From Patescibacteria group bacterium (GTDB lineage Bacteria; Patescibacteriota; Microgenomatia; UBA8517), in the NCBI GenBank assembly GCA_026416845.1, contig JAOAEL010000001.1, positions 117,940-181,939 on the forward strand: DNA of 64,000 nucleotides. Direction: 5' to 3'. The position numbers and the translations under genes were made by a program. The notes under the pieces were generated by a model, which saw only the letters and a program-made list of their open reading frames with translations, ran no database searches and was not told where the DNA came from. Within the stretch, counting starts at the first letter, position 1. The number at the start of each line of letters is the position of its first letter. Below, piece by piece: positions 7,929 through 64,000 of this stretch.

Positions 7929-7955
7929 TTTAGATTCAGGTAAAAAAATAACTGC

Positions 7956-9650
7956 CTAATTTGCCACAACTAAAAAATACAAAAAATTGTTTGAACCATA
8001 AATTCTTTTTATTATGTTAGCTTCGGAAGGAATTTCCTTAGGACTGCCAATGATAATACTATCAGGATATTCTAAAGCAGTTTTATAAAAATCAATTGGT
8101 TCAAAGATAAAACGATCAAAAGCAGAAACAGTGGAAAACCCAAAATTATCTCTTGGAGTAAGATCGTGATTATTTTGAAAAACATATGGATCATACTTTA
8201 AGTAAAACAAAAATAAAATATAAGGCTGGTCGTAAAAATTTGTAATAACTATTTTTTTGTCTTTGTGATTTTCTCTTAAATAATCAACCAGTTCTTTTAC
8301 CCCATATTGAGAAGAATAAGGATATTCATAAGACATATGTTTATAATACATGTGCAAATAACGAAACAGGCTCCAACACAAAACACAAATCAGAAGCAAA
8401 CAACCAAAACCAAAGTAAATTTTGTTCTTATTCTCATAAATCCAATTGACTATTGAATAAAATCCTATAGAACTAATTATCGTTAAAGGCACAACCATAT
8501 TTTGTGCTCTTAAAGCATGAGGGGATTGAAATGTAAGTGCGGCCGCAAAAGGAGAAACGACAAGCCAACATAAAATAATCCCTAGATTTTTGTTACGAGA
8601 AAGACTAAAGATTGATTTGGCGTTAACTATTTGCAAAAGACCAATAATAATAAACAAAAGCTCAAATCCATACAACAAACCAGTCTCGGGAACCTTGTTT
8701 CTTTGTATATCATCTCCTGACAAAAACAAAAACTCTCCATGAAAATGATCAACATAATTTTGCAGAAAAGCCAAAAAATAATTCACATACTTATTGTGAA
8801 AACTCATTGCCCAAAAACTATTTGGGTGAAAATGTTCTCCTCTTTGTTCGTTAACTCTTGCTATTGGACCCGGATCAGCAAAGATTCCAACACCAGAAGC
8901 TCTGGAAATTCCGGCAGGACCAAAAAAATCAATTATTAAAGGAATCAGCAAAAACACTGACAAAGCAAAAGGAAATATCAGTTTTTTCCAATAAAGCATT
9001 AATATTTTTCTAAAAAAAATTGCCAAACCAAAAACCAAAAGAGGGACTATCACCCTTGAGGCATGATAGGTGTACAAAGACAAAACAAAACAAATGAGAG
9101 AAAATAACAAAAATTTAAATCTAAACAAGTTTGCGTCATTAAATTCTTTCTTCATGTAAACCAAGAAGAAGTAAACACCAAGAATAATAAAAAAAGTGGC
9201 GACATTGACTTCCCAAGCGCCACGCGAAAAATGAATATGCCAAGGAGAAATAGCAAGCAAAAAAGCGGACAGTTCTGGAAGCGAAAACTGAAAATTCAAA
9301 ATTGAAAATTTTCTGCAATTGGGAAATGATACATGAATCAACCAATACAAAATTATCACCGTGCCAACACCCGCCAAAGCTCCCGGAATTCTTACCGCCC
9401 ATTCATTTAACCCAAACAACCAAACAAATGGAATTGCCAAATACACATAAAAACCTGGTTTATAATCATTAAATGATTGAAAATGAATAGGAAATGGATT
9501 TGCGTGTTCGTCTTTGCCAGTTTTAATTAAAGAATAAGCGTTATAGCCAAGAGCCGCTTCATCCGCGTTCAACGCCGGATATCCACCTAGATTCCAAAAA
9601 CGCAATGTAAAAGCTATAAAAATTATCAAAAAAAATAAACTTTTTTTCAT
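7956..9650 (-). CDS. GT-C membrane glycosyltransferase, PMT/ArnT (GT39/GT83-like) family
   Basis: N-terminal loop NADEAALGYNAYSLIKTGKDEHANPFP carries the DE motif of ArnT/PMT-type enzymes. About 12 TM helices plus a C-terminal soluble domain. Paralogous to the four similar genes below. Confidence 0.75.
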   Translation of the reverse strand: MKKSLFFLIIFIAFTLRFWNLGGYPALNADEAALGYNAYSLIKTGKDEHANPFPIHFQSFNDYKPGFYVYLAIPFVWLFGLNEWAVRIPGALAGVGTVIILYWLIHVSFPNCRKFSILNFQFSLPELSAFLLAISPWHIHFSRGAWEVNVATFFIILGVYFFLVYMKKEFNDANLFRFKFLLFSLICFVLSLYTYHASRVIVPLLVFGLAIFFRKILMLYWKKLIFPFALSVFLLIPLIIDFFGPAGISRASGVGIFADPGPIARVNEQRGEHFHPNSFWAMSFHNKYVNYFLAFLQNYVDHFHGEFLFLSGDDIQRNKVPETGLLYGFELLFIIIGLLQIVNAKSIFSLSRNKNLGIILCWLVVSPFAAALTFQSPHALRAQNMVVPLTIISSIGFYSIVNWIYENKNKIYFGFGCLLLICVLCWSLFRYLHMYYKHMSYEYPYSSQYGVKELVDYLRENHKDKKIVITNFYDQPYILFLFYLKYDPYVFQNNHDLTPRDNFGFSTVSAFDRFIFEPIDFYKTALEYPDSIIIGSPKEIPSEANIIKRIYGSNNFLYFLVVAN

Positions 9651-9660
9651 CTTCTTATGC

Positions 9661-11388
9661 CTATTTAACTTTTACAACAGTAAACGCAATTGACCCATCA
9701 AGATTTTTTATCCTACTCACAAGTTCATATCCGCTCCATTTGTCAAAATCAGAAGGTATAGAGATCTCATTTCCAACTATTATTGACCCTTCTTCTGCAT
9801 GTTTAGGCCAACTAAAGTTTTCAAAATAAATACTGTCAATTGATTTAACCAATGAAACGTCATGTCTGTTTTCTTTATATCTTTCTAATTTTCTTGCTTG
9901 TAATTTACGAGGATCGTATTGGCTATAGAATAAATAGTAAATATAAGGTTGAGCATAAGATTGCTGAAATATAATCTTGTTCTCAGATTCAATATAAAGT
10001 TTTAATGATTGAACTACTTGTTTGTAACCAAATTGCCAATGCTTGGCATTATGAATTGGCTGATGGATAAAATACGCGTCAATAAAGTAAATAAAACTAA
10101 CTAAATAAGAAGTGAAAAGAAACCCAAATAAAGAGCTTCTTATCAACCAATTTTTAGATTTGTCCAAAAAATCAACAAAATAAATAAACCCAAAAGCGCA
10201 AATAATTGTCAAGGGTATTAACATATTCAAAGACCTCACTGCATGCACTTGATCGCGAGACAAAACCGCTGGCAATGGGGAAATAATCAACCAAGATACA
10301 ACAAACACGCTAAGTTTTAAACTGTTTATTTTAAATAAAGAATAAAAACCAAGAACAAGAAAAAGAACATCCGCAAAAAGCAAAACTCCATGATTGGGCG
10401 GTAAATGGCGCGGATTTTGCCAATCCCCTTCAAAAAACAAAAATCTCCCCGAGAAATGATTAAACCACCTTCCTAAAATGCCCCTTGCAAAATTCAGAGC
10501 TTCATTATGAAAAAGATAGTACTGCAAATCGCCTTTTTGCTCATTAGCTCTTTGCAAAAACTGATTAATGTATTCTTCAGATCTTGGGTAAGAAAAAACA
10601 CTAAAAACTTCCAATCTTCCAGCTTCGCCTGCCCTAAAACTTAACAAAACAGGAAAAATTACTATAAATGAAACAATAAAAGAAACCAAAAGATAGAAAA
10701 TCTTGCCTCTAAAATCCTTAAGCAACTCCTGATAAAAAACCAAAACAAGAACAAAAAATACAATCAATGAAGATAATTTCGCTCCTTGATATGTAAGCAA
10801 TGTCAAGGCAAACGCAAAAAATGAAAATATTAAACACTTGTAATTTTTTACACCTCTTATAAACATTAATATTCCAAACAACGTAATGGTCAAAGAAACA
10901 TTTGCTTCCCATCCTCCACGAGAAAAGGCGATGTGCCAAGGACTAACAGCCAATAAAAAACTTGCAACCAAAGGCGCAAAATAATAAATCTTAGACAATT
11001 TCTGATTTTTTTCCTGATTTTTAAGATTATCAAAAAATTCTTTTAATATTTTGTAAATCAAAAAAATCGCAAAAATGCCAGCAATAGCGCTAGGCAGACG
11101 CACACTTAACTCAGTCAAGCCAAGAAAAAAAACAAAAGGAATAACAAAATAAACATATAATGCAGGCTTGTAATCTCCAAAAGATTCAATGATTAGTGGC
11201 AAAAATTTTCCATGTTCATCTTTTCCGGTTTTCAAAATTGAATAAGCGTTATAGCCAAGAGCCGCTTCATCGGGGGTAAGCGAAGGAGGATTCGTGCTCA
11301 AATTATAAATTCTTAATAAACTTGCAATGAAAATAACTACAATTAAAACAAGTTTGTCAATTTTCTCAAATGAACAATTAATTTTCAT
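9661..11388 (-). CDS. GT-C membrane glycosyltransferase, PMT/ArnT-like (paralog 2); start taken at MKINCS...
   Basis: TPDEAALGYNAYSILKTGKDEHGKFLPL motif. 570-580 aa with many TM segments. Using the internal Met reduces the overlap with the upstream paralog to ~11 nt. Confidence 0.75.
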   Translation of the reverse strand: MKINCSFEKIDKLVLIVVIFIASLLRIYNLSTNPPSLTPDEAALGYNAYSILKTGKDEHGKFLPLIIESFGDYKPALYVYFVIPFVFFLGLTELSVRLPSAIAGIFAIFLIYKILKEFFDNLKNQEKNQKLSKIYYFAPLVASFLLAVSPWHIAFSRGGWEANVSLTITLFGILMFIRGVKNYKCLIFSFFAFALTLLTYQGAKLSSLIVFFVLVLVFYQELLKDFRGKIFYLLVSFIVSFIVIFPVLLSFRAGEAGRLEVFSVFSYPRSEEYINQFLQRANEQKGDLQYYLFHNEALNFARGILGRWFNHFSGRFLFFEGDWQNPRHLPPNHGVLLFADVLFLVLGFYSLFKINSLKLSVFVVSWLIISPLPAVLSRDQVHAVRSLNMLIPLTIICAFGFIYFVDFLDKSKNWLIRSSLFGFLFTSYLVSFIYFIDAYFIHQPIHNAKHWQFGYKQVVQSLKLYIESENKIIFQQSYAQPYIYYLFYSQYDPRKLQARKLERYKENRHDVSLVKSIDSIYFENFSWPKHAEEGSIIVGNEISIPSDFDKWSGYELVSRIKNLDGSIAFTVVKVK

Positions 11389-52496: not shown

Positions 52497-53447
52497 TTAA
52501 AGAATCTCTCCAGCCTTGGCTACAATAATAATTACTATAATCATGACCAAAAAAGCAAAATGCGCAAAATTCTTGCCCCCTATACGCGGAACTTTTCTAA
52601 CTGCAATTAAAGCGCCATCAATAACTGTAGCAATAGACAATAAACCAACTACAATCAAGGAAACATTCTTTGTAGTGTCAAAAGGAGAAATCTTCAAAGA
52701 TGAATCTTTCTCAACCAAACCCGTAGAAGATGCGACATATACTACAACAGGTTCTGTTTCGCTTGGCGTATGAGTGGGAGTTGGAATAATAGTTGGACTT
52801 TTGACAGCAGTTTCAAATTTTGATTCAGGCAGTTTTTTCGAAACGCTATTTTTTTGAGCAACCGGCAATTGGGATGAAGATGCTTGAGTCCCAAAAAGCT
52901 GGACAATTATTGTAGTGTCAACTCCATTTAAATCACCTTCAACAACAGCAACGCCAATTTCCGTGTATTTTGGAGAAAGCAAATTTTCCTTGTGCGAAGG
53001 GGAAGCCATCCAAGCATCAACAGCAGAAACTGCATTGGCAAAATCGCGTGCCAAATTCTCGCCGGCATATTTGTAATTGTATCCAACCAAATTAAAAAAA
53101 TACCAAGGCTGAGTCCCATCAGGAGCCACATGCGCCCAATAATCATTGGCTAGCATATGCTCACCTTTTTTTCTGGCGGCTTCGGCAAGCAATGGGTTAT
53201 TCTTAAGCTCGGGCAAACCATTAGCCACACGCTTTTGATTAGAAATAGAAATCACTTCAGTAACAGATATTTGAGAAGCATACCCCAAAACACGAGCTCC
53301 TGTTTGCGGCAAGAAACTAATTATGGCTTGAACCAAAAGCAAAAATGCCAAAACATAAGTAAGAAAGCTAAAATGCAAAACTCTTGCTCTTTGATTGTTG
53401 CTATGATGTGGAGTGAAATAATGCAAAAAAAGGCTAACAAGTATCAT
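52497..53447 (-). CDS. CAP/SCP-domain (YkwD-like) protein with an N-terminal TM, a Pro/Thr-rich linker and a C-terminal membrane anchor
   Basis: NDYWAHVAPDGTQPWYFFNLVGYNYKYAGENLA...WMASPSHKENLLSPKYTEIGVAV is a CAP-domain signature, followed by the PTIIPTPTHTPSETEP linker and C-terminal hydrophobic helices. Confidence 0.7.
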   Translation of the reverse strand: MILVSLFLHYFTPHHSNNQRARVLHFSFLTYVLAFLLLVQAIISFLPQTGARVLGYASQISVTEVISISNQKRVANGLPELKNNPLLAEAARKKGEHMLANDYWAHVAPDGTQPWYFFNLVGYNYKYAGENLARDFANAVSAVDAWMASPSHKENLLSPKYTEIGVAVVEGDLNGVDTTIIVQLFGTQASSSQLPVAQKNSVSKKLPESKFETAVKSPTIIPTPTHTPSETEPVVVYVASSTGLVEKDSSLKISPFDTTKNVSLIVVGLLSIATVIDGALIAVRKVPRIGGKNFAHFAFLVMIIVIIIVAKAGEIL

Positions 53448-53672: not shown

Positions 53673-54860
53673 ATGGTTTGTACCCTTAATTTACGGTTTG
53701 TTTTTCTCATGAAGCAAATATTACTGTCCATCGCCACAATAGCCGCAATAGGAAGCATATCTTTTGGCTTGTCCTCGGCTTTTTTTTCTGACACAGAAAC
53801 TTCGCAGGCAAACTCTTTGACTGCTGGATCTTTTGACCTTTTGTTAAACGGAGGCAACAACACTTCCGCGATTGTGAACATTAATGATTTAAAACCGGGA
53901 GACAATCAAATAGTAGAAAAATCTTTGCGAATAGAAGATAACTCGGGTTATGTTTTCATGCACATAAAAGATCTGTTACCTTCTCAAGGCACGCAAACAG
54001 AACCTGAGATCTTAGAAGAAAATGGCACTCCAAAATTTGACATACAAAACTACATCAAATACGATCTTGAAGCAAACAACCAAACAATCATTTCATTAGA
54101 CAACCAAGTTTTTCTGCCGGAAGTCGTCTCTTGCTGGATACCTCTTGGAGAATTGCCAGGACAAACAAATGTTTCTGTAAAACAAAGTTTTCACTTGGAT
54201 CCGAACGTCACAAATTGGGCACAAGGAGACACGCTTAGCTTTGTTGAAGAATTTTATTCTGTTCAGAGCAGAAACAACTCCAATCCAGCTCCGCCAGTTT
54301 CTTTGACTGGAAGAATTTGGGATAAAAACATCAAAAAGTGTGTAAATTGTCCATCTGGGATTCTTTTTGCCGACGGAGTAGACAGCGCAAATACCAAACA
54401 AGGCACTTTGAAAAACGGCAATCCAATAACAGATCCAAATAGAACAAATCCTTTAAACGCAACAGGACCTAATAACTGGGTAAACGGCACAGGAACAAAC
54501 TTTTTCTCACTGGGAAAAGGAGGGTATATTACTCTGACTTTTTCATCGCCGGTGGTTAACGAACTAGGCAATGATCTTACCTTCTACGAAGCCACAAATG
54601 GCAGAGCGACATATCCTGAAGAGAAAGCGGATGTTTATGTAAGTTTTGATGGAGTCAGCTACTTTTTCATTGGCACAGTAACAAGTGAACCGGGTCCCGG
54701 TGGAGACGGCATTATGGAGTTAGATATCGCGCCTTCGGGATTGCCTTCCATAAAATATGTGCGTTTAATAGACACGACAAATTTCACTCCTCACGCAAAC
54801 AACGCTGACGGCTACGACATTGACGCGGTAAAAGCAAAAAGCGCATGTCTAAAACAATGA
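53673..54860 (+). CDS. Secreted TasA/camelysin-like protein with a SipW-cognate-class signal peptide (alternative start at 53709, MKQILLS)
   Basis: N-terminus ...LLSIATIAAIGSISFGLSSAFFSDTETSQANSLTAGSFDL carries the A-FFSDTETS hallmark of SipW-dependent signal peptides. A NINDLKPGDNQIVEKSLRIEDN core motif is shared with the two paralogs. Confidence 0.7.
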   Translation: MVCTLNLRFVFLMKQILLSIATIAAIGSISFGLSSAFFSDTETSQANSLTAGSFDLLLNGGNNTSAIVNINDLKPGDNQIVEKSLRIEDNSGYVFMHIKDLLPSQGTQTEPEILEENGTPKFDIQNYIKYDLEANNQTIISLDNQVFLPEVVSCWIPLGELPGQTNVSVKQSFHLDPNVTNWAQGDTLSFVEEFYSVQSRNNSNPAPPVSLTGRIWDKNIKKCVNCPSGILFADGVDSANTKQGTLKNGNPITDPNRTNPLNATGPNNWVNGTGTNFFSLGKGGYITLTFSSPVVNELGNDLTFYEATNGRATYPEEKADVYVSFDGVSYFFIGTVTSEPGPGGDGIMELDIAPSGLPSIKYVRLIDTTNFTPHANNADGYDIDAVKAKSACLKQ

Positions 54861-55012: not shown

Positions 55013-55933
55013 ATGAAAAAGATTTTAATAAGTTTGTTAACAATTGGCGCGGTTGGAAGCCTTGCTTTCGGAGCAACATCGGCATTTTTCTCTGATACAG
55101 AAACGTCAACAAACAACAAAATAGTCGCTGGGAAACTAGATCTGAAAGTTGATAGCACTGCCCATTATGCTGGAATGGTATGTAAAAATAATGTCTGGAC
55201 AGATGAAGATAATGATCAAACAAACAATCCAAGACCTGAACTTCTAGGTAAAACTTGTTCGGGCACTTGGACATCAACCGATCTTGGTCCAACAAATCAG
55301 TTTTTCAATTTGTCAGATGTGAAACCGGGCGACACTGGAGAAAATACGCTCAGTCTTACGGTTTTGGACAATGATGCTTGGGCATGCATTGTAATGAAAA
55401 ATCTTAAAAATGATGAAAATCAATGTACAGAGCCTGAATCTGACCCGCAAAGCGGCAACGACACAACATGCGGAAACGATCCGGTTGGAGCAGGACTGGG
55501 CGAACTTGCTCAAAATCTGTACTTTACAGCATGGTTGGACCAGGGGAATCAAGCAGGTTGGCAAAATTCAGATAATGACAATACAAATGACGATCCGGGT
55601 GAAGGAGATAACAAGTGGCAAGGTCCAACACTTGAACCTTTGTTATTCTCAAACCAACAAGGTCCCGCGTCTGATGTCCTAAATGGAAAAGTATACGCTC
55701 TGGCTGATTCCACAAACGGGAATTATTTAGCTGGTAGCGTTACTAATTACATCGGGCTTCAGTGGTGCGCTGGACAAATGACTATATCTGGAAACACTAT
55801 CAGTTGTAACGGGGCGACAATGGGCAATAATACCCAAACCGATTCCTTGACAGCGGATGTTTCCATTTATGTGGAACAACGCAGAAACAATCCGGCATTT
55901 AAATGCGCCGGGGCGAATCTGCTTCCTAATTAA
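55013..55933 (+). CDS. Secreted TasA/camelysin-like protein with a SipW-cognate-class signal peptide (paralog 2)
   Basis: MKKILISLLTIGAVGSLAFGATSAFFSDTETSTNNKIVAGKLDLKVD, followed by FNLSDVKPGDTGENTLSLTVLDN. Confidence 0.7.
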   Translation: MKKILISLLTIGAVGSLAFGATSAFFSDTETSTNNKIVAGKLDLKVDSTAHYAGMVCKNNVWTDEDNDQTNNPRPELLGKTCSGTWTSTDLGPTNQFFNLSDVKPGDTGENTLSLTVLDNDAWACIVMKNLKNDENQCTEPESDPQSGNDTTCGNDPVGAGLGELAQNLYFTAWLDQGNQAGWQNSDNDNTNDDPGEGDNKWQGPTLEPLLFSNQQGPASDVLNGKVYALADSTNGNYLAGSVTNYIGLQWCAGQMTISGNTISCNGATMGNNTQTDSLTADVSIYVEQRRNNPAFKCAGANLLPN

Positions 55934-55952
55934 TGATTGTTTTTCCAAAAAC

Positions 55953-55982
55953 CCCTCGGGCGAAATTTGTTTCGCCCGAGGG
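55953..55982. terminator. 13-bp perfect GC-rich hairpin (CCCTCGGGCGAAA / TTTG / TTTCGCCCGAGGG) between TasA-like gene 2 and sipW; candidate attenuator or partial terminator
   Basis: Seen directly. The stem is exceptionally GC-rich for this genome. The + strand has no U-tract after it (AAAGGGAG...), but the minus-strand reading is followed by GUUUUUGG. Confidence 0.45.
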
Positions 55983-56062
55983 AAAGGGAGAATAGTAAAA
56001 CAAAAAAAATTGCAATATATCAAATTTAAAAAATTAGGCACAAAAGTTTATGAGATCAGAAT

Positions 56063-57292
56063 ATGAAATACTTTAGGAACTTTTTTTATGTTTTCAAAAA
56101 CGCAAGTTTAATTTTGCTCTTCACAGCGGCTTCATTAATAACTCTTTCACATTTTGGGTATTTAAAAACAATTAAACCATACATTGTTCAATCAGGCTCT
56201 ATGGAACCGTCAATACCAACAGGAAGCGTGATCTTTTCTCTCCATTCCAAACTTTATCAGCCGGGAGACATAATCACTTTTTTTGCAAACGGTGATCCTA
56301 AAACTGTTGTTACACACAGGCTCAATTTCAAAATTTTTAAAGACAATCAAACTATATACATCACCTCTGGAGACGCAAACGAAGACTTTGACAAATGGGA
56401 AGTGAGATATGAGCATATAGTTGGCAAAGTTGTGGCAATCATACCACATCTTGGGCATGTGATCGATTTTGCCAAAACACCACAAGGATTTATAGCTCTT
56501 GTGGTTGTTCCTGCAACAATCGTAATCTATGAAGAACTAAAAAACCTCCTGCGAGAAATTGGCAAGCTCGTTTTGGCAATCAAAATTTTTTTTAAAAAGA
56601 AAAAGGAAGAAAATTCAAGTCTATTTAATTTCGCAAAAAGCGTCAATCTAAATAGAATTTTTGTTTTTGTGCCAATTTTAGGAGTGTTTGTCTTTATAAC
56701 CGCAAATTCCGGAGGATACTTTTTAGATACAGAAAAAAGCGCAGGGAACGTTATAGGAGTTGCAACATCGTATAATTCGCCAACAATAACACCTACCAAC
56801 TCAAACTCACCCTCGCCAACCATCTCTCCTACAAGCACACTACCACCCACAAACACAATAACCGCCACAGCAACGCCAACAACAACTCCCACAATTTCTC
56901 CTATGGTTAAGCTAAACGAAGCCGCGCCTGCAACTAATCCCGAATGGGTAGAAATTTACAACACATACCCTACTGCCGATTTTCTTAAAAATTACTGGCT
57001 TGACGATGACACTAGTTTTACAAGCGACTCAGGAAACTCCCCAAAAGTGCTAATGTCATCGCTTGACACATCGAACACTTTATTCCCAACCATAGACCTT
57101 ACAAATCCAATTTTTAACAATACCGGAGATTTTATAGTTATTTTTGATAACTTGGGAAATCTTGTGGACTCGGTTAATTACACCAGTAATTTTGGCACTA
57201 AATCCATCGGTCGAGAAATTGACGGAACAGGAATATGGAAATTCCCTTGCGCTAATTCAACAAAAGGAGCAAGCAACAACACAAAATGTTAA
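56063..57292 (+). CDS. sipW: SipW-type (archaeal/ER-type) signal peptidase I fused through a Pro/Thr-rich linker to a C-terminal lamin-tail domain (LTD)
   Basis: TM helix, then catalytic-Ser box QSGSMEPSIPTGSVIF, His box TVVTHRL, second TM GFIALVVVPATIVIY, linker TPTNSNSPSPTISPTSTLPPTNTITATATPTTTPTISP, then LNEAAPATNPEWVEIYN...GDFIVIFDNLGNLVDSVNY, which matches the LTD consensus. Confidence 0.8.
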   Translation: MKYFRNFFYVFKNASLILLFTAASLITLSHFGYLKTIKPYIVQSGSMEPSIPTGSVIFSLHSKLYQPGDIITFFANGDPKTVVTHRLNFKIFKDNQTIYITSGDANEDFDKWEVRYEHIVGKVVAIIPHLGHVIDFAKTPQGFIALVVVPATIVIYEELKNLLREIGKLVLAIKIFFKKKKEENSSLFNFAKSVNLNRIFVFVPILGVFVFITANSGGYFLDTEKSAGNVIGVATSYNSPTITPTNSNSPSPTISPTSTLPPTNTITATATPTTTPTISPMVKLNEAAPATNPEWVEIYNTYPTADFLKNYWLDDDTSFTSDSGNSPKVLMSSLDTSNTLFPTIDLTNPIFNNTGDFIVIFDNLGNLVDSVNYTSNFGTKSIGREIDGTGIWKFPCANSTKGASNNTKC

Positions 57293-58311
57293 AAAAGATT
57301 TTTCTATTATCAATATCGACAGCGGCAATTTTAACAGTGATCTTTTGGCACAAAAACACGACAAAAAATGTCTACGCAATAGATCCTCTGATAATAACAT
57401 ACAACAATTCGCCCACACCAAATCCAGTTTTTAATGTGGCAAATTTCTTACCCGGAGACAATAAGATCGAGAAAATTAAAGTAAAAAACAATTTGCCAAG
57501 CGGAAGCTTCGGAGTCTCGGTGGATGGGATATTGGATCAAGAACAAAAAAACTTGGCAGAAATACTACAAATTACTATCACAGAAGTTGGTTTTGGGGAT
57601 ATTTATGGAGGTTCAACTGGCAAAAAAACTCTTAAACAGTTTCTGAACTCGCCACCAATTAACTTGGGAGTATTCCCATCAGGAAGTGAGAAAGAATATG
57701 AATACAAAATATTTTTCCCACATGAATCAGGCAACGAATATAAAAACGGGCATGTTGTCTTTACGCTAATTTTCAACAATTTTATAACAATTGATCTTCC
57801 AAAAGAATGCGCTCACTTGGCAAATCAAATTGTCAACGTAATTGAAGGCACTGAAGGCAATGACAACATACATTCAACCTACCTTAGCGACCTAATACTT
57901 GCCAAAGGAGGTAACGATAAAATCAGAGCTTCAAGCGGAAGCGATTGTATTGTAGCCGGAGACGGCAATGACACAATAGACGCAGGCACAGGCAATGAAG
58001 TTATTTTAGGCGGAGGAGGAAATGACAACATAAGAGGTGGTACAGGAAACGACACTATCTATGGAGGAAGCGGAAATGACAGAATCGACGCGGGAAGCGG
58101 AGACGATGTAGTCTATGGCGATGATGGAGATGACAACATAGAAGGCGGAAGCGACAAAGATAAACTATATGGCGGCAAAGGCAAAGATGACATAAGAGGC
58201 GGAAGCAACAACGACCTTTTAGACGGAGGAGAGGATTTTGACAAATTAAATGGAAATTCCGGCCAAGACACGTGCAAATTCGGCGAAGTGCTTAGTTCTT
58301 GTGAACTGTAA
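57286..58311 (+). CDS. Secreted TasA-like core protein with C-terminal RTX (hemolysin-type) calcium-binding repeats
   Basis: Signal anchor MLKKIFLLSISTAAILTVIFW; FNVANFLPGDNKIEKIKVKNN core shared with the two TasA-like paralogs; then 12 tandem GGxGxDxxx nonapeptides (GGNDKIRAS ... SNNDLLDGG). ATGTTAA overlap with the sipW stop. Confidence 0.7.
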   Translation: MLKKIFLLSISTAAILTVIFWHKNTTKNVYAIDPLIITYNNSPTPNPVFNVANFLPGDNKIEKIKVKNNLPSGSFGVSVDGILDQEQKNLAEILQITITEVGFGDIYGGSTGKKTLKQFLNSPPINLGVFPSGSEKEYEYKIFFPHESGNEYKNGHVVFTLIFNNFITIDLPKECAHLANQIVNVIEGTEGNDNIHSTYLSDLILAKGGNDKIRASSGSDCIVAGDGNDTIDAGTGNEVILGGGGNDNIRGGTGNDTIYGGSGNDRIDAGSGDDVVYGDDGDDNIEGGSDKDKLYGGKGKDDIRGGSNNDLLDGGEDFDKLNGNSGQDTCKFGEVLSSCEL

Positions 58312-58470: not shown

Positions 58471-59061
58471 ATGTTACTCAAAAAGATAACAAGCAGTTTG
58501 GCAACATCTGGCGCTTTGTTGGTGTTGGCAACTGGAGCGGTATTTGCAAGCACAGATGTTACCATCTCGGGAAACGGAGAAGATTCAGTAAACACTGTGA
58601 AAGTTAACTTAACTAACACAACATCCGTTTACCAAAGCAATGCAACAAATGTCAAAAACGATGTCTCATCAAGTGCGTCAACCGGCTCAAACACCATTTC
58701 AAAAACAACAAATGGTAATGCCAAGATAGACACTGGGGACGCGACAAGCATGGTGTCTGTTATGGTTGCCGGCGGGAATAATCACCTGTCTAGCAATCCA
58801 TGCGGATGTGTAAATGGCGAAACGACAGTGACCGTCAAAAATAACGGAGCTGACTCAACCAACAAAGTAAAAGTGAAGTCTAAAAACACTTCACAACAAG
58901 GACAGCACGGAGAAACAAATGTATCAACATCTGTTTCTTCTAAAGCCAAAACCGGTAAAAATAAGGTTAAAAAAGCCACCGGTGGCAATTCTGAAGTCAA
59001 AACAGGTGACAGCGAAAGCGCCGTGTCTGTAATAGTAACCGGAGGCCATAATTATTTGTAA
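58471..59061 (+). CDS. Secreted two-repeat protein of an unrecognised N/T/S-rich repeat family (TGDA family)
   Basis: Signal peptide MLLKKITSSLATSGALLVLATGAVFA. Two ~80-aa repeats, each ending ...TG.N.....T.GN.....TGD..S.VSV.V.GG.N.L, plus a CGC pair. Strong RBS AAAGGAGGTG before the ATG. Confidence 0.6.
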   Translation: MLLKKITSSLATSGALLVLATGAVFASTDVTISGNGEDSVNTVKVNLTNTTSVYQSNATNVKNDVSSSASTGSNTISKTTNGNAKIDTGDATSMVSVMVAGGNNHLSSNPCGCVNGETTVTVKNNGADSTNKVKVKSKNTSQQGQHGETNVSTSVSSKAKTGKNKVKKATGGNSEVKTGDSESAVSVIVTGGHNYL

Positions 59062-59129: not shown

Positions 59130-59681
59130 CTAGTCGACGGACAAAACAACAACCAATCTCTTGGAATCTTTATAGCCGCTACAAGTATACAAGGTAAGCT
59201 TTTTTTCTTCGCTCGATGGCGCAATAATTTTTGTATCCGTTGGCAAAACTTCCAAAACATCATCAACTTTATATTCAAACCAAGTTTTATTAGTTAAAAC
59301 AAAAACAGAGTCTCCTTTTTTTATATACTTTAAATTGCCAAACAAATTATCTTTTGCATGCCCAAATATGACCACATTGCCAATTTCTCCTGGATATGCG
59401 GACCCTACACCCCATCCAGCTTTATCATCAAACACCTCCCAATAACCACTTTTTACAAAAGATACTTGGACATTAACATTTAGTTTAAGATCTGGAATAA
59501 GTATTTTTTGCGGGATTTTTTCAGCGTCAATTTCATTGATTAAAGCAAATTCTTCCAGTGTTGCAACTTGATTAACAGATAAAACTGAAGCGTCCGCTTT
59601 TGGTTTAAACAAAAGCAACAAAACGCCAAGGGCAAAAAGACAAATGCCTATTGTAATTTTAGAAGGGTAATTTATTCTCAT
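59130..59681 (-). CDS. Sortase (cysteine transpeptidase), with an N-terminal membrane anchor
   Basis: Catalytic His in VIFGHAKDNLFGN, TLxTC-type Cys in KLTLYTCSG, Arg in RLVVVLS. The start is taken at the second Met (MRINYPSK); 59708 is also possible. Confidence 0.8.
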   Translation of the reverse strand: MRINYPSKITIGICLFALGVLLLLFKPKADASVLSVNQVATLEEFALINEIDAEKIPQKILIPDLKLNVNVQVSFVKSGYWEVFDDKAGWGVGSAYPGEIGNVVIFGHAKDNLFGNLKYIKKGDSVFVLTNKTWFEYKVDDVLEVLPTDTKIIAPSSEEKKLTLYTCSGYKDSKRLVVVLSVD

Positions 59682-60810
59682 TTTCACTCGCTTTTCCCGC
59701 CGAATCAATTATCATACCCAAACCCAAAACCAAAAACAAAATTCCAAACAAATAATTTAGATCCAAACTTTTTTCGCTTGAAGTTTTTGAAAGGCCCAAA
59801 ATTTCTCCGCCGCCAATGGCATTTTCGCCCAAAAAACTGGTTTTGCTTAAAAAATTTGCGTTATTGTTGTTTGCAGATCCGTCGTTTGGATTTTTAATGA
59901 TTGAATCTTCAGGAACAGTCGGAGGGTCATCAGGATCATCCCCATTATCAAAAAAACAACAATTAAAACTAATAAAATTTGAATTTATATAATCATTTCT
60001 TAAAAGAATATCTAAAAAAATATCGCCTGTAATTATTGCCGAATCTCCCAAATTGCCGCCAATGAAATTTTCACCACTATTTGCGTCAACAAAAACTTCA
60101 TTTAGAATCACTGAACTATTCTCAACAAAAACATTATTTTTTAAATTTTTGAAATTGTTTGCGCTACTCCCACCGACATAAGCGTTGTCAATAAACCTGA
60201 AACTTGAAGCATCTTCTGAAAGATTGGCAGGCAAACTAGAAATAGATGAATTAATTGGACCATTTTTTACAGATGTTACAACTTTTACATCCCCTGTTGT
60301 TATTTTTGTATTGCGAGAATTATCATTTGCTTTATTGAGACCAGTGTTTGCAACCCCAACAATTTTAGTTTTAATTACAGCGCTATTTTGAGAAACAAAA
60401 TTATTTGACAAATTGCTTGAAGAACTAACTGTATTTGTTGAATTAGAACCATTGTTATTAATGTTAACCTGCTGGTTTATCTTGGCAGTTTCACAACAAT
60501 TATCTTTAAAACCATTTTGATTTGATAAATTAATCGCGGTCTGACTAATTTTCGCGTCGCCAGTTTTTACGTTAACTTCATCTCCACTTTGATCAATTAA
60601 ATTTGATCCGGTGTTTGTATTAGAAAAGACATCGTTTTGAATAGATGAGTTGTTTGTTTGCAAAACATTTACCGAATTTGACAATTGAACAATCGCCTGA
60701 CTTGAAGAATCGGAACCGTTATCAGATATCGTCAACTCATACCCAAGCGCACACTTTGGTTGACATAAAAATATGAAAAAAAAGATTAGAAAAACAAAAA
60801 ATTTAGACAT
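59659..60810 (-). CDS. Secreted repeat protein, TGDA family (paralog)
   Basis: Signal peptide MSKFFVFLIFFFIFLCQPKCALG. Repeats ISDNGSDSS...NTNTGSNLIDQSGDEVNVKTGDAKISQ and NNGSNSTNTV...ANTGLNKANDNSRNTKITTGDVKVV. Has a CC pair and a C-terminal hydrophobic segment without LPxTG. Confidence 0.6.
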   Translation of the reverse strand: MSKFFVFLIFFFIFLCQPKCALGYELTISDNGSDSSSQAIVQLSNSVNVLQTNNSSIQNDVFSNTNTGSNLIDQSGDEVNVKTGDAKISQTAINLSNQNGFKDNCCETAKINQQVNINNNGSNSTNTVSSSSNLSNNFVSQNSAVIKTKIVGVANTGLNKANDNSRNTKITTGDVKVVTSVKNGPINSSISSLPANLSEDASSFRFIDNAYVGGSSANNFKNLKNNVFVENSSVILNEVFVDANSGENFIGGNLGDSAIITGDIFLDILLRNDYINSNFISFNCCFFDNGDDPDDPPTVPEDSIIKNPNDGSANNNNANFLSKTSFLGENAIGGGEILGLSKTSSEKSLDLNYLFGILFLVLGLGMIIDSAGKASENENKLPF

Positions 60811-60872: not shown

Positions 60873-63221
60873 TCACTTTCTCGAGAACATCGCAAGTATA
60901 GCGTTTTTGTTTTTTGCAATAAATAAACCCGTGAAAATTGGGATTAATGTCAGAAGCCATGCAAGATTTATGTTGATAGTTTTTTTCTCATTTCTGATTT
61001 CAGCACTTTCAACAAAGGCGTCTACATCACCAACAATCCCAGTTTCGCTTTGATCTTTAGAACCTGAAAATGCCAAAACTGATTTGTTGGAATTACTAGC
61101 TTTTTTCGATATCGCTTTATTTGAAAAAATCTTTTTATTTGATTCTTCCTTCATATTTGTAACTTCATTATAAACCTGAAAACCGGAAGTGTTTGGGTTT
61201 GCAAGAGTGCTACTTTTGTCTTTTTCGGCTACTCCTCCGCGTCCACTATCGTTAACTGAAGATGGCTTCGAACCAACATAATCAGGAGAGACAAAATTAC
61301 CAACCCAACTGCCAAACACATTTACAACTGTCACGAATAATCTGCCGCTACCGACTATATTGTTATTTACAAAGTTAACCAAATTGGCAACAATGTTTGC
61401 GTCTCCGGTAACAATATTTGTATTGCCACCGGTATTTTTGCTTGCCTGATTTTTGCCAGTATTAGCCGAAAGATTCAAATTATTAGTGACATTTGCAGTG
61501 TTTGATTGAACAATTGTATTGTTTGCGATTGAAGAGCTAAAAGCATTGTTAAATGAATTTGCGCCATTGCCATTATTTGAAGCATAAATTTCTCCATTTT
61601 CATCAACTAAAAACTCAATCCCATTTGATCCAGCCAAATTTGCGCCTTCAGGAGACCCCAATATTCTACCAACCCAATTTCCAGCCTGATTAATAAGAAC
61701 AAGCCACCAATCCCCGCCAACTATATTTGTGTTTGCAACATTGATAACTTGCGCAGTGACATTTGCATTCCCTGAATTAACAGTGTTATTGCCATCTGTA
61801 TTTTTACTCACTTCGTTTTCACCCGTGTTGGCGTCAAAAAACAAGTTGTTGTTTATATTGGCATTATTAAACTGATACAACTGATCGTTTGAACTGACAC
61901 TTGCATCCGCAGTGTTTGTAGAGTGTGCGCCATTGCCTGTATTTTGAACATTGCCAGACAAAAGACAACAAGGCAAACCAAATCCGAAAGGAGCAATTAT
62001 GTCTCCAACCAAATTGCCAAAAATATTTACAACACCATAAATCACATTGCCAGCTATGTTATTGTTTACAAAAGTCAAAGCGTTTGCAGAAACATTCGCA
62101 TCGCCAGTGGTAATTGTCACATCTCCGCCAGTATTTTTATCCGCATAATTTTTGCCGGTATTGGAATCAAGCTTAAGTGTGTTCAAAACCACAGCATCGT
62201 TAGTCTGAAATTTATTTGTGTTTAGCGCATAATCAAGCAAAGCGTTATTCGAAGAATTCGCGCCATTTTGATGGTTGGCAACATTACCTCCACCCAAAGT
62301 TGAACAGTTAACTATGCACGCATTGCCAAAATCCAAAACAATATCCCCAATGTGATCATCTTCAACATTAAACTCTGCAATAACCACCCCATCAACATTT
62401 GTGTTGACAGAAGTAATAATAGTGCCAGTTGTATTTGCGTTGCCTGTTTTAATGTTTACATTGCCAACATTTTTGGAAGCGGAATTTCCGCCAGTGTTAG
62501 TATCTTGAGAAACTGAATTTATAACAACAGCTTTATTGTCTTGAATTGTGTTTGAATTATTTTCAGAAACAAAAGCTCCATTGTTTGCAGAACCAGATCC
62601 ATTGCCTTCATTAACAACAGCAGAAGCACCACCTGCCAAGCCGGTAGGCACTGCCGATAAATTGCTGTTTGCAACCACAGCTCCGGTGACAGAATTTGTC
62701 GCATTGCCAGTTCTTAGATCAGTTTTACCCGAATTTCCATCTGAGTTTTGTCCCCCTGTAGAATTATCAACAGCCAAACTTTTAGGAGAAACTGAAGAAG
62801 ACTGCTGGTTCTCAGCAGGTGAACTTGAATTATCTGAAGCGGCAAAATCAGAGTTAATTGATCTATCTCTTTTTGTTTTTTCATTTGAACTTTCTGAATT
62901 TTTTGGTTTGGAATTATTACCAGATTGATCACCTTGAGAAGAACCAGAATTTTGGCTATCTGGCAAATTATTTAGACTGCCAGAGGGAATGGTAGGAGCA
63001 GTCGGGGCAACAGGAGGAATTGGAGCCGCAGGTGGAGTTGGAGACAAAGGCGGAGATGGCGCGTTGGGAGCCATAGGCGCCGACGGAGCAACCGGAGCGC
63101 TTGGCACTGATGGAATTTCAGAAGCCAAAACCCCTGCCACTTGCACAAATAAAATTACAAATATAGTAAAAAGGGCAATTATTCTTTTAGTTATACTTTT
63201 TATAAATTTTATAAATTGCAT
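60873..63221 (-). CDS. Large (782 aa) secreted surface protein: Pro-rich N-terminal tract, four or five ~110-aa TGDA-family repeats, and a C-terminal hydrophobic anchor
   Basis: Signal peptide, then PSVPSAPVAPSAPMAPNAPSPPLSPTPPAAPIPPVAPTAPTIPSG. Repeats such as LDSNTGKNYADKNTGGDVTITTGDANVSANALTFVNNNIAGNV and LSANTGKNQASKNTGGNTNIVTGDANIVANLVNFVNNNIVG. C-terminal LAWLLTLIPIFTGLFIAKNKN. Confidence 0.65.
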   Translation of the reverse strand: MQFIKFIKSITKRIIALFTIFVILFVQVAGVLASEIPSVPSAPVAPSAPMAPNAPSPPLSPTPPAAPIPPVAPTAPTIPSGSLNNLPDSQNSGSSQGDQSGNNSKPKNSESSNEKTKRDRSINSDFAASDNSSSPAENQQSSSVSPKSLAVDNSTGGQNSDGNSGKTDLRTGNATNSVTGAVVANSNLSAVPTGLAGGASAVVNEGNGSGSANNGAFVSENNSNTIQDNKAVVINSVSQDTNTGGNSASKNVGNVNIKTGNANTTGTIITSVNTNVDGVVIAEFNVEDDHIGDIVLDFGNACIVNCSTLGGGNVANHQNGANSSNNALLDYALNTNKFQTNDAVVLNTLKLDSNTGKNYADKNTGGDVTITTGDANVSANALTFVNNNIAGNVIYGVVNIFGNLVGDIIAPFGFGLPCCLLSGNVQNTGNGAHSTNTADASVSSNDQLYQFNNANINNNLFFDANTGENEVSKNTDGNNTVNSGNANVTAQVINVANTNIVGGDWWLVLINQAGNWVGRILGSPEGANLAGSNGIEFLVDENGEIYASNNGNGANSFNNAFSSSIANNTIVQSNTANVTNNLNLSANTGKNQASKNTGGNTNIVTGDANIVANLVNFVNNNIVGSGRLFVTVVNVFGSWVGNFVSPDYVGSKPSSVNDSGRGGVAEKDKSSTLANPNTSGFQVYNEVTNMKEESNKKIFSNKAISKKASNSNKSVLAFSGSKDQSETGIVGDVDAFVESAEIRNEKKTININLAWLLTLIPIFTGLFIAKNKNAILAMFSRK

Positions 63222-63353: not shown

Positions 63354-64000
63354 CTACCCCATAAGGAATTCCAAAAGATCTCTCAAATTAAACGAAATGT
63401 TTAAATTGAAACCATACATTGGAAATTCCCATTCAGGAGTTTCACCATAAACATTGGAATTACCACCGTTTGTAACTTCCACATAGCTTTCGGCATCACC
63501 GGTTTTGATATAAGGATCTGATCCATCATAACCAGTTCCTTTCTTGGATTCGTTATAACCAGTGCCTGCGTCAGCATAAACTAAATTGTCGACACCGTAA
63601 CCGCCATTTGATTGAAAAACGCCAAGAGAGTCATCAAAGACTGCTTCAATGTCGTTTCTCGAATCATAACCATTTCCATGGATTTTTGCCAAAACATCAA
63701 AAAGACATCCGCAATCAACGTCTGCCCAATTGAAGTTTGTCATTGTGTCAACAACCACATCCACAGTGGCATCTCCTGTCTCTATGACAAAGTCACCACC
63801 TGTGTTTTTGTTTGCTTTATTGGAACCAGTTCCGGCATCAACATCAACTTTGTTGTAAACAGAAGCTGAGTTGTTTTGCACAACATTTAGATCGTGACCA
63901 AAGTCTAGATCCAAATCGTTTCTGCTATCAGCGCCGTTTCCAACAACCCAAGCGCTAAGAGTTTTGGCTCCGTTTCCGTTAGCACCAACTCTTGCAGAAT
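63354..64000 (-). CDS. Partial CDS (C-terminal part; N-terminus lies beyond the window end): secreted repeat protein, TGDA family
   Basis: The frame is open to the window edge: ...NGNGAKTLSAWVVGNGADSRNDLDLDFGHD is upstream of the ORF-track TTG start. Repeats DAGTGSNKANKNTGGDFVIETGDATVDVVV and DAGTGYNESKKGTGYDGSDPYIKTGDAESYVEV, plus a CGC pair. Confidence 0.55.
   Translation of the reverse strand, partial: SARVGANGNGAKTLSAWVVGNGADSRNDLDLDFGHDLNVVQNNSASVYNKVDVDAGTGSNKANKNTGGDFVIETGDATVDVVVDTMTNFNWADVDCGCLFDVLAKIHGNGYDSRNDIEAVFDDSLGVFQSNGGYGVDNLVYADAGTGYNESKKGTGYDGSDPYIKTGDAESYVEVTNGGNSNVYGETPEWEFPMYGFNLNISFNLRDLLEFLMG

Follow-up and report, generated by a model that had tools for sequence, protein, structure and literature searches.

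The window, meaning the whole analyzed stretch of 64,000 nucleotides from an uncultured, ultra-small Patescibacteria bacterium, carries at 56063-57292 (+) one uninterrupted 409-aa reading frame with zero internal stops, here called sipW-LTD. From N- to C-terminus it encodes a SipW-type (ER/archaeal-type) signal peptidase, a 46-aa Pro/Thr linker and, at the C-terminus, a lamin-tail domain (LTD). The original prediction had likewise seen no stop between the peptidase and LTD parts, and the single open reading frame is confirmed. NCBI holds an identical protein under the name 'MAG: signal peptidase I [Patescibacteria group bacterium]'. The gene and its neighbors are as follows.

53673..54860, +, TasA/camelysin-like secreted protein 1, SipW-type signal peptide ...SSAFFSDTETSQAN (PF12389, 34.8 bits; segment HMM, described below, E 2.1e-7)
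55013..55933, +, TasA/camelysin-like secreted protein 2, SipW-type signal peptide ...TSAFFSDTETSTNN (PF12389, 23.0 bits; TIGR04088, 32.5 bits; segment HMM, E 7e-8)
56063..57292, +, sipW-LTD, whole ORF, 409 aa, SipW-type signal peptidase and substrate-type LTD module
57286..58311, +, secreted RTX-repeat protein, conserved downstream neighbor (PF00353, E 3.3e-29)
58471..59061, +, Asn/Gly/Thr-rich secreted repeat protein, last gene of the plus-strand cluster (no family match)
59130..59708, -, sortase, convergent with the cluster (PF04203, E 3.3e-24)

The true start of the first TasA/camelysin-like protein is probably the Met at 53709. The RTX gene begins (57286) within the end of sipW-LTD, overlapping its stop by 7 nt, and an RTX protein gene lies downstream of sipW-LTD in the related loci L001 and L003 as well. 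The conserved operon thus comprises one or more TasA-like genes, sipW-LTD and the RTX protein gene, with a sortase further along in both the window and L003. The product of 58471..59061 gave zero Pfam or NCBIfam matches; L003 encodes, at the matching place in its operon (10762-11361), a protein that resembles it by eye.

Given that the operon holds fibre-type TasA/camelysin-like substrates, the earlier suggestion of a link between the peptidase and fibres it processes is reasonable. The two neighbors are called TasA-like from their N-terminal Pfam and NCBIfam matches only, and a PDB sequence search for TasA, with a TasA-like neighbor alone and with a 19-sequence profile, gave nothing at E <= 1. 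Pfam and NCBIfam recognized no TapA-like anchor gene in the window operon. A cargo domain shared between the C-terminal domain of the 53673-54860 product and the cargo of the protein P0094 was suspected, and comparison of the two gave no support for it.

Domains and predicted topology of the sipW-LTD protein

Within the 409-aa protein the following parts can be distinguished, all on the plus strand.

56090..56158, +, TM1, N-terminal anchor, about residues 10-32 (hydropathy, charge count; AF2 helix 2-30)
56168..56482, +, catalytic domain, residues 36-140, extracytoplasmic by prediction (TIGR02228, SEC11C/A alignment, near-invariant columns, Foldseek)
56198-56200, 56315-56317, 56372-56374 and 56390-56392, +, catalytic-box residues S46, H85, D104 and D110, respectively
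56489..56539, +, TM2, residues 143-159, GFIALVVVPATIVIYEE, C-terminal anchor of the peptidase itself (hydropathy; within SipW profile NF046067)
56540..56656, +, predicted cytoplasmic loop, residues 160-198, like a signal-peptide n-region (charge count, 10 K/R vs 3 D/E)
56657..56707, +, TM3, residues 199-215, IFVFVPILGVFVFITAN, putative retained signal-peptide h-region (hydropathy, segment HMM)
56708..56767, +, predicted cleavage site plus N-terminal motif of the TasA family, residues 216-235 (segment HMM; conserved positions)
56768..56905, +, linker rich in Pro, Thr and Ser, residues 236-281, disorder predicted (sequence; low pLDDT)
56906..57289, +, lamin-tail domain, residues 282-409 (Cys pair C395 and C409 at its C-terminal end)

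Judged by profile and alignment, the N-terminal part is a signal peptidase of the ER/archaeal type (SipW-type, Ser-His). Residues 14-159 score 82.4 bits on TIGR02228 (sigpep_I_arch; cut-off 51.85), and 112 of 120 relatives match this model as well. The residues S46, H85, D104 and D110 sit in the boxes SGSMEP, THR and GDANEDFD, which line up with SGSMEP, HR and GDNN in human SEC11A/C, with Ser-His and not Lys, and they are at least 90% conserved among the 120 relatives. Foldseek on the full-length AF2 model gave 7p2q_A and 7p2p_A as top matches; the matches fall mostly on the peptidase part, and the C-terminal domains of LexA and lambda repressor are among them. The match to the Bacillus SipW equivalog profile NF046067 extends over TM2 (up to position 179 of 189) and scores 83.9 bits against a cut-off of 190, so the protein is SipW-like in type and context rather than an equivalog.

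Hydropathy gives three hydrophobic helices (about residues 10-32, 143-159 and 199-215), where the original prediction had described two. The catalytic domain is flanked by membrane anchors on both sides, TM1 and TM2, and the third helix is additional to these. As the N-terminus ahead of TM1 has 3 K/R and 0 D/E, it is placed in the cytoplasm. From hydropathy and charge the likely topology is N-terminus in, TM1, catalytic domain out, TM2, Lys/Arg-rich loop in, TM3, and then motif, linker and LTD out. What places the LTD outside, by prediction, is the third helix, which follows a loop with 10 K/R vs 3 D/E; two helices alone would leave it in the cytoplasm. Among the relatives with the extended architecture, K/R exceed D/E in the corresponding loop in 219/221, and its median length is 37 aa. 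A Pro/Thr linker is present (about residues 236-281), as had been proposed, though it does not directly follow the second helix: the loop, the third helix and a substrate motif intervene.

At the C-terminus, Pfam LTD (PF00932) matches residues 282-374 with an E of 2.3e-8 and 34.8 bits, barely over the gathering score of 34.3, and scanning the C-terminal part alone yields 33.6 bits. The Pfam check proposed for this domain therefore bears it out, if marginally. The predicted structure of the LTD is a complete beta-sandwich. In the AF2 model pLDDT falls below 50 over residues 231-274, in line with a disordered linker. The closest matches to the window LTD (47%) are stand-alone LTD proteins with ordinary signal peptides and C-terminal anchors. 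A SipW-type peptidase joined through a Pro/Thr linker to an LTD, predicted to be extracytoplasmic, was thus rightly recognized at this locus.

An internal segment of signal-peptide type

Directly after the third helix lies a SipW-substrate motif (residues 216-235) that was overlooked in the original prediction. The sequence there reads S216-G217-G218, then Y219-F-L-D-T-E-K-S-A-G-N-V-I-G-V-A, with the predicted cut between G218 and Y219. This SGG/YFLDTEKSAGN..GVA type of signal peptide and N-terminal motif is also found on the two TasA/camelysin-like proteins encoded upstream. The segment has the layout of a SipW-type signal peptide, with a basic loop, TM3, small residues at S216 and G218 and Y-F-L-D-T-E-K-S-A-G-N, but it is internal (residues about 160-235) and not N-terminal.

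A profile of the segment was trained on 86 relatives; neither the window protein nor its three closest relatives were among them. This segment HMM finds the internal region of the window protein at E 8.7e-16, and in a set of 1,017 six-frame ORFs it matches only fused peptidases, internally, and the N-termini of seven TasA-like neighbors (E 1.5e-10 to 2.1e-7; next match E 0.4). In the aligned fused members P3 is S/T/A in 90/90 and P1 is S/A/G in 90/90, with P2 variable. The same pattern, followed by F, D, E, S, N and A at P2', P4', P6', P8', P11' and P15', occurs in 139 true N-terminal substrates; at P3, P1, P1' and these six positions the same residues are kept in the 90 fused proteins and the 139 substrates. 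Helix and motif are retained in 221 of 241 retrieved relatives, whatever sequence follows.

The family model TIGR04088 ('SipW-dependent-type signal peptide') gave zero match to the window's own segment (residues about 185-248), where the motif reads GGYFLD against a consensus of SAFFSD, and Pfam gave zero matches to the same residues in isolation. TIGR04088 is matched internally at E <= 0.01 by 8/120 relatives, the best at E 4.9e-6. By its sequence pattern, then, the internal segment is a retained substrate-type signal peptide, or pseudo-signal peptide, behind the peptidase.

An internal translation start yielding a separate LTD pre-protein was considered and rejected, as a Met occurs in only 71/221 of the loops and in none of the positions of the window's loop, and promoter-like sites are no commoner than in shuffled sequence.

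Fused and unfused relatives and the alternative explanations

The fusion had been described as not seen before; it recurs in public data. The extended architecture is found in 221 of the 241 relatives retrieved, down to 26% identity and in many assemblies. By a family HMM, 120 of the 221 carry an LTD, most with a precomputed PF00932 match, and the rest have other domains or merely a tail of 30-50 aa. In public metagenomes the fusion is common and labeled only 'signal peptidase I'. A rough neighbor-joining tree of the catalytic cores suggests one large fusion clade and up to three others.

Related loci were scanned in genomes with an alignment of the catalytic core. TasA/camelysin-type substrates with the SipW-type signal peptide are encoded together with sipW in 21/25 extended and 46/58 short sipW loci. 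In other Patescibacteria, the ORF directly 3' of a short sipW (start at -32 to +95 nt relative to the sipW stop) encodes an LTD in 30/67 testable loci; 16 of these 30 LTD ORFs have a SipW-type N-terminus over the HMM threshold, and most others have one by eye. Ten unfused downstream proteins were tested, with Pfam LTD over cut-off in 8/10 and Peptidase_M73 in 3/10. Since sipW is followed elsewhere by a separate, substrate-type LTD gene, the window protein is best described as a peptidase-substrate gene fusion. Pairwise BLASTP of the window's C-terminal module against the unfused LTD proteins of loci L074 and L035 was not significant (E 0.38 and 0.48), and the correspondence between fused and unfused forms is therefore one of architecture and profile, not of close orthology. 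The short-sipW loci (e.g. L035, L054, L060, L065 and L074) resemble the window in operon position, signal-peptide motif and Pfam LTD; they differ in having two genes, not one, and several of the unfused proteins have a TasA-like body (Peptidase_M73) between motif and LTD.

In the unfused relatives the end of sipW and the start of the LTD gene share a few bases, which means that one wrong base in sequencing or assembly could join adjacent genes, and the related locus L023, which looks broken the other way, might be taken as a sign of such errors. Against this, the architecture is continuous in 221 independent relatives, which come from many assemblies and reach as low as 26% identity, and a second assembly (L004) has an identical catalytic core. 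With so many independent occurrences an artefact is effectively refuted, and the frameshift or two-gene alternative raised at the outset is ruled out by the extended architecture common to these relatives and by the exact protein in NCBI.

The original prediction proposed a permanent tether, in which the chain would stay uncut, TM3 would only return the C-terminus to the outside and the LTD would hold an active peptidase to the wall, to fibres or to a host surface. The predicted outside location of the LTD agrees with this, and its close LTD relatives P0110, P0113 and P0118 are stand-alone, membrane-anchored surface proteins, which makes a membrane-tethered LTD a normal state in these organisms. 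However, a topological adaptor needs neither small residues at P3 and P1 in 90/90 nor the full F-x-D-x-E-x-S-x-x-N motif, and helix and motif are retained where no LTD or other cargo exists to tether. Nor is the LTD simply appended: it brings its own retained signal peptide (TM3), a (-3,-1) site and a TasA-family motif that matches real substrates position by position, and related genomes have a separate gene directly downstream of sipW. The evidence favors a fused and likely cut-off substrate over a permanent tether, which we regard as unlikely. An intact chain could instead form the membrane-anchored base of a fibre, with the first TasA-like subunit receiving its donor strand from the motif outside TM3, the peptidase anchoring the fibre and the LTD making an extra contact. 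The motif does match the N-terminal region of fibre-type substrates, variants without cargo retain it, as would fit a role of the motif itself, and no TapA-like anchor gene was recognized by Pfam or NCBIfam in the operon. Yet the strict (-3,-1) pattern points towards cleavage, and the strand would start about three residues from the membrane, leaving little room for insertion into a folded subunit; such a fibre base seems to us improbable. The segment might also serve as a pseudo-substrate, filling the binding groove and gating the peptidase, and be released never or only on a signal. It has all the features of a substrate and is held covalently beside the active site, but in the unfused genomes the LTD protein is an ordinary substrate with a gene of its own, which speaks for a secreted product and not a regulator, and we give regulation of this kind very little credence.

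Proposed role and comparison with known systems

TasA-type fibres form a matrix and pilus system that is widespread in bacteria and archaea. Their start and anchoring are understood only in Bacillus subtilis, via TapA, and even within the genus Bacillus TapA is not conserved (PMC10151520). SipW cleaves TapA, whose minimal active unit is the N-terminal residues 44-57 (Roske et al. 2023, PMC10151520). With its complete Ig fold TapA can only initiate a fibre, it is roughly as scarce as SipW, and the stop codon of tapA and the start codon of sipW overlap (PMC10151520).

On balance, it is somewhat likely that sipW-LTD is an in-frame fusion of a SipW-type peptidase and a substrate LTD that is cut after G218 to give a TapA-like fibre initiator or tip. 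The peptidase probably cuts off its own tail; the released tail perhaps starts or caps fibres of the proteins encoded by the neighboring genes. In such a scheme, TM3 would offer S-G-G/Y-F-L-D-T-E-K-S to the peptidase active site of the same chain or of a neighboring copy. A cut after G218 would leave a three-helix peptidase in the membrane and free a 191-aa LTD module with the TasA-family N-terminal strand motif at its new N-terminus. As this module would have the strand and lack a TasA-like body to accept another subunit's strand, it could plug into a TasA-like subunit encoded upstream and occupy the fibre end, as TapA does in B. subtilis, with the LTD as the adhesive or anchoring head of the fibre. 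The fusion would supply peptidase and initiator in equal amounts and in the same place. Zero matches to the TapA families in Pfam and NCBIfam were found in the sipW-LTD protein, and the comparison is meant as 'works like' TapA, not 'is a' TapA, with strand donation predicted. Counting against this explanation, the variants without cargo would free a mere short peptide.

More tentatively, the protein can be imagined as a self-priming fibre machine, a peptidase with its first substrate in its own chain, in which one cut, intramolecular or neighbor-to-neighbor, would both activate the three-helix peptidase and free, right beside it and in a one-to-one ratio, the LTD-headed initiator or tip of TasA-like fibres. 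We find this possible, with some doubt. It would be, to our knowledge, the first case of a signal peptidase I that has its substrate built in. What the fusion predicts is specific: a cut between G218 and Y219 that depends on S46.

All components are of known kinds, and the architecture is already in public databases under a generic name. It is not described in the literature surveyed on signal peptidases with an LTD, SipW/TasA in Patescibacteria, LTDs in CPR bacteria, and SipW fusions or extensions. Throughout the Patescibacteria, sipW and the TasA-like genes have a conserved third partner, an LTD protein that bears a SipW-type signal peptide and that one large clade carries fused to the peptidase, making sipW-LTD a concrete candidate for the missing fibre initiator or anchor in these bacteria. 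Their surface appendages have, as far as we know, hardly been studied experimentally. If the proposed role is correct, such fibres could let the ultra-small Patescibacteria attach to surfaces or hosts.

Self-cleavage would have a precedent among the structural relatives of the peptidase. LexA, UmuD and lambda CI (family S24) self-cleave at a site in the same chain. Their catalytic fold is related, but they are soluble Ser-Lys repressors cut at Ala-Gly in the cytoplasm and unrelated to secretion or fibres; if sipW-LTD does cut itself, self-cleavage of the LexA kind would extend to membrane signal peptidases. Streptococcus pyogenes SipA/LepA (PDB 4n31) shares the signal-peptidase fold (Foldseek E 9.3e-4) and is dedicated to surface-fibre assembly. 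This signal-peptidase homologue is required for pilus polymerisation and is described as a chaperone without the catalytic residues. Unlike SipA/LepA, the window protein keeps S46, H85, D104 and D110 and has a fused substrate.

The bundling pili AbpA/AbpB of Pyrobaculum calidifontis are a TasA-like fibre built by strand donation, for which a TapA-like initiator or adhesin has been proposed (PMC9245690). They have neither a dedicated signal peptidase encoded nearby nor a fusion. The tapA-sipW-tasA operon of B. subtilis also encodes an ER/archaeal-type Ser-His peptidase together with TasA/camelysin substrates bearing an A-F-x-D... motif. Beside sipW it likewise has a minor substrate composed of a signal peptide, an N-terminal strand and a complete Ig-like domain (PMC10151520). 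In the window, by contrast, peptidase and minor substrate form one covalent chain with the substrate at the rear, the order is sipW then accessory rather than tapA then sipW, and the globular domain is an LTD in place of the TapA domain.

Domain architecture and membrane topology

The gene sipW-LTD and its neighbourhood in the window comprise the following features.

201-40132, minus strand: about 30 co-directional genes
52497-53447, minus strand: CAP/YkwD-family protein, secreted, containing a Pro/Thr stretch plus hydrophobic segments at the C-terminus; it lies immediately upstream of the fibre operon
53673-54860, plus strand: TasA-like protein
55013-55933, plus strand: TasA-like protein
55952-55983: strong GC-rich hairpin (14 pairs, 9 G-C) with a T-run on the minus-strand side only
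56063-57292, plus strand: sipW-LTD, 409 aa
57286-58311: RTX-repeat (HemolysinCabind) secreted protein, its ATG inside the sipW-LTD stop region (7-nt overlap, ATGTTAA)
58471-59061, plus strand: Asn/Gly/Thr-rich protein
59130-59708, minus strand: sortase
59659-60810, minus strand: Asn/Gly/Thr-rich protein
60873-63221, minus strand: Asn/Gly/Thr-rich protein
63354-63914, minus strand: Asn/Gly/Thr-rich protein

Profile matches bore out the original prediction of a SipW-type peptidase, a linker and a lamin-tail domain (LTD) in one protein, encoded by a single ORF with no internal stop or frameshift between the parts. The N-terminal part matches TIGR02228 (82.4 bits; cut-off 51.85), which makes it a signal peptidase of the ER/archaeal type; against the Bacillus SipW equivalog model it reaches 83.9 bits, under the 190-bit cut-off. 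Of the expected Pfam matches the LTD was found (residues 282-374, E 2.3e-8, 34.8 bits, barely over the gathering score of 34.3), while the S24 and S26 models both stayed below their cut-offs. Human SEC11C and SEC11A are phmmer matches in the PDB, and in alignment with them the catalytic residues S46, H85 and D104/D110 fall on the SGSMEP, HR and GDNN boxes, each conserved in at least 90% of 120 relatives. The same two proteins head the Foldseek matches of the full-length AlphaFold model (mean pLDDT 84.9), followed by S. pyogenes SipA and the cleavage domains of LexA and lambda repressor. Modelled alone, residues 270-409 form an all-beta domain (pLDDT 86.7) for which Foldseek returned nothing significant. 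These matches establish the domain identities: the order peptidase-linker-LTD is real, and the LTD assignment for this sequence by itself is acceptable but not strong. The 64-kb window holds no second LTD and no second SipW-type peptidase.

Two transmembrane helices had been claimed, but hydropathy gives three, at about 10-32, 143-159 and 199-215, with positive-inside charge. Helix two is the C-terminal anchor that SipW-type enzymes canonically have. Because the 39-residue loop behind it carries 10 K/R and 3 D/E, it should be cytoplasmic, and the third helix is predicted to bring the chain back outside. With only two helices the LTD would therefore be intracellular; the proposed extracytoplasmic LTD agrees with the predicted topology, whereas the two-helix layout would leave it inside.

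An internal SipW-type substrate-like segment

Immediately behind the third helix, and overlooked originally, sits S216-G217-G218-Y-F-L-D-T-E-K-S-A-G-N-V-I-G-V-A. Both upstream TasA-like genes, which pass the Pfam cut-off for Peptidase_M73 (camelysin/TasA), start with a signal peptide followed by S-A-F-F-S-D-T-E-T-S-x-x-N, so the C-terminal extension opens like the peptidase's own substrate. The TIGR04088 model ("SipW-dependent-type signal peptide", cut-off 19) scores 32.5 bits on 55013-55933 and 16.8, just under the cut-off, on 53673-54860; it does not reach the segment of sipW-LTD itself, and it matches internally in 8 of 120 relatives (best E 4.9e-6).

An HMM of helix and motif was built from 86 relatives, with the window protein and the three relatives nearest to it excluded, and searched against all 1,017 six-frame ORFs (40 aa or longer) of the window and three related loci. 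Its only matches were internal ones in fused peptidases (E 8.7e-16 for the window's sipW-LTD) and N-terminal ones in seven TasA-like neighbours (E 1.5e-10 to 2.1e-7); the first match beyond these came at E 0.4.

The classical signal-peptidase rule asks for small residues at -3 and -1 and leaves -2 free. Across 90 aligned internal segments, P3 is S/T/A and P1 S/A/G in 90/90 each, and P2 is variable. Further positions are Y/F at P1' (88/90), F at P2' (79/90), D at P4' (89/90), E at P6' (82/90), S at P8' (83/90), N at P11' (87/90) and A at P15' (75/90). Among 139 genuine N-terminal substrates from 83 loci, P3 is T/S/A and P1 A/S in 139/139, with F, D, E, S, N and A at the matching positions. The internal segment is thus indistinguishable from substrate signal peptides, and it is conserved independently of the cargo. 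At the TasA site that SipW cuts, the hallmark residue is Phe at P2' (PMC10269814).

Distribution, unfused pairs and gene neighbourhood

NCBI lists the identical protein under the title "MAG: signal peptidase I [Patescibacteria group bacterium]". When 1.84 billion cluster representatives were scanned in full with HMMER, 210 proteins matched at E <= 1e-30 and 4,006 at E <= 1e-10. The fusion had originally been presented as not seen before, but the architecture recurs: peptidase, internal helix and motif (the extended form) are present in 221 of 241 retrieved proteins, with K/R exceeding D/E in the loop in 219 of the 221. An LTD follows in 120; the remainder carry other domains or end 30-50 residues past the motif.

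Scanning GTDB representatives (one genome per species) with the catalytic core gave 457 relatives, and the loci of the best 80 are essentially all from Patescibacteria (Woesebacteria, Chisholmbacteria, Moranbacteria, Saccharibacteria and others). The Patescibacteria-type operon is carried by a few third-party MAGs (L005, L011, L012, L014, L017, L020, L024 and others) titled "uncultured Gammaproteobacteria", "Pseudomonadales" or "Bdellovibrionales", titles that are probably wrong. The best 80 loci among these 457 relatives, plus three related loci (L001-L003), contain 26 peptidase ORFs of the extended form, 16 with an LTD, and 75 of the short canonical form (143-354 aa). A rough neighbour-joining tree groups 23 extended forms, the window's included, in a single pure clade and places three among short forms. 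L002 carries tandem extended paralogues in one genome, the first (6672-7535) with a different short cargo and the second (8001-9293) with an LTD. In L023 the extended gene (7860-8663) ends where the LTD should start, and the LTD resumes in an overlapping ORF (8653-9057), likely through frameshift, pseudogene formation or assembly error.

Among 67 short sipW genes away from contig edges, 30 are followed by an LTD in the next same-strand ORF, whose start lies between -32 and +95 nt relative to the stop of sipW. A SipW-type N-terminus exceeds the segment-HMM threshold in 16 of these 30 and is visible by eye in most of the rest (e.g. NAFFSDKATIEGSTF, NAFFGDAETSDTNGF, AYFNDTEGYENN); of ten tested with Pfam, eight pass the cut-off for LTD and three for an N-terminal Peptidase_M73 match. 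Since short sipW so often precedes such a gene, sipW-LTD is very probably a fusion of sipW with a downstream substrate gene, whose cytoplasmic loop would derive from the sipW C-terminal tail and the basic n-region of the signal peptide. The match of fused and unfused forms is one of architecture and position only, because pairwise BLASTP of the C-terminal part against two unfused examples was not significant and the closest LTD (47% identity, E 3e-29) belongs to P0113, a stand-alone LTD protein that has an ordinary signal peptide and is anchored at its C-terminus. This suggests that cargo has been swapped over evolution in sipW fusions. P0110, P0113 and P0118, stand-alone relatives of this LTD subtype, share an ordinary signal peptide, LTD, long Pro/Thr linker and C-terminal membrane anchor; this layout resembles a general format for surface display in Patescibacteria.

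TasA-like substrates adjoin the extended sipW gene at 21 of 25 loci and the short one at 46 of 58. L001 (Woesebacteria) repeats the window's gene order, with TasA-like gene(s) first, then sipW-LTD and, directly 3' of it, the RTX-repeat protein; so does L003, where the peptidase shares just 26% identity with the window's and where, as in the window, a sortase lies further along. The hairpin at 55952-55983 separates sipW-LTD from the second TasA-like gene and, by attenuating or stabilising the transcript, might set the ratio of subunit to accessory proteins. Clustered around the sortase, the four Asn/Gly/Thr-rich proteins share a recurring "...N-x-G-x-x-S-x-N ... T-G-D-A..." repeat and have no Pfam or NCBIfam match; a similar-looking protein (by eye) is encoded in the L003 operon at 10762-11361. 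In 201-40132, models of dolichyl-phosphate-mannose-type glycosyltransferases (PMT or PMT_2) match 8 of 10 large proteins scanned, four of them over the Pfam cut-off, and one further protein matches YfhO. As PMT-type genes adjoin this linker-rich operon, the Pro/Thr linkers may be O-glycosylated.

Predicted cleavage and comparison with TapA

The third helix would be oriented as a signal peptide, N-terminus in and C-terminus out, exposing S-G-G|Y on the outer face, the side on which the peptidase has its active site. A cut after G218, by the same chain or a neighbouring copy, would free residues 219-409, and on the site pattern we consider such cleavage somewhat likely. Were the chain left uncut, the LTD could hold the peptidase as a permanent tether, which we regard as unlikely, or the protein could serve as a membrane-anchored fibre base, a slightly less likely role; against both stands the strict -3/-1 pattern across a family diverged to 26% identity. 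That the segment acts as a pseudo-substrate regulator seems highly improbable, and an assembly artefact is excluded by 221 independent occurrences.

The literature searched describes neither a signal peptidase-LTD protein nor a SipW-type signal peptide in an internal position; TasA homologues have been noted in Patescibacteria, with nothing further on the subject (PMC9245690). The databases hold many members, annotated "signal peptidase I". The components are all of known kinds, and their combination and logic are not described.

TasA subunits of B. subtilis are linked by a donor strand, residues 28-41 (PMC10151520). TapA, also cut by SipW, carries an Ig fold that is complete; for function its N-terminal residues 44-57 suffice, and it has been proposed as an initiator only. 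Its abundance is as low as that of SipW, and the stop codon of tapA overlaps the start codon of sipW (PMC10151520). Like TapA, the freed sipW-LTD module would combine an N-terminal strand resembling that of a subunit with a linker and an Ig-like domain complete in itself, without a TasA body to accept a strand. Confidence drops from fusion to cleavage to function; because of this shared layout, we tentatively propose that the module may be a TapA-like initiator or tip with the LTD as its head.
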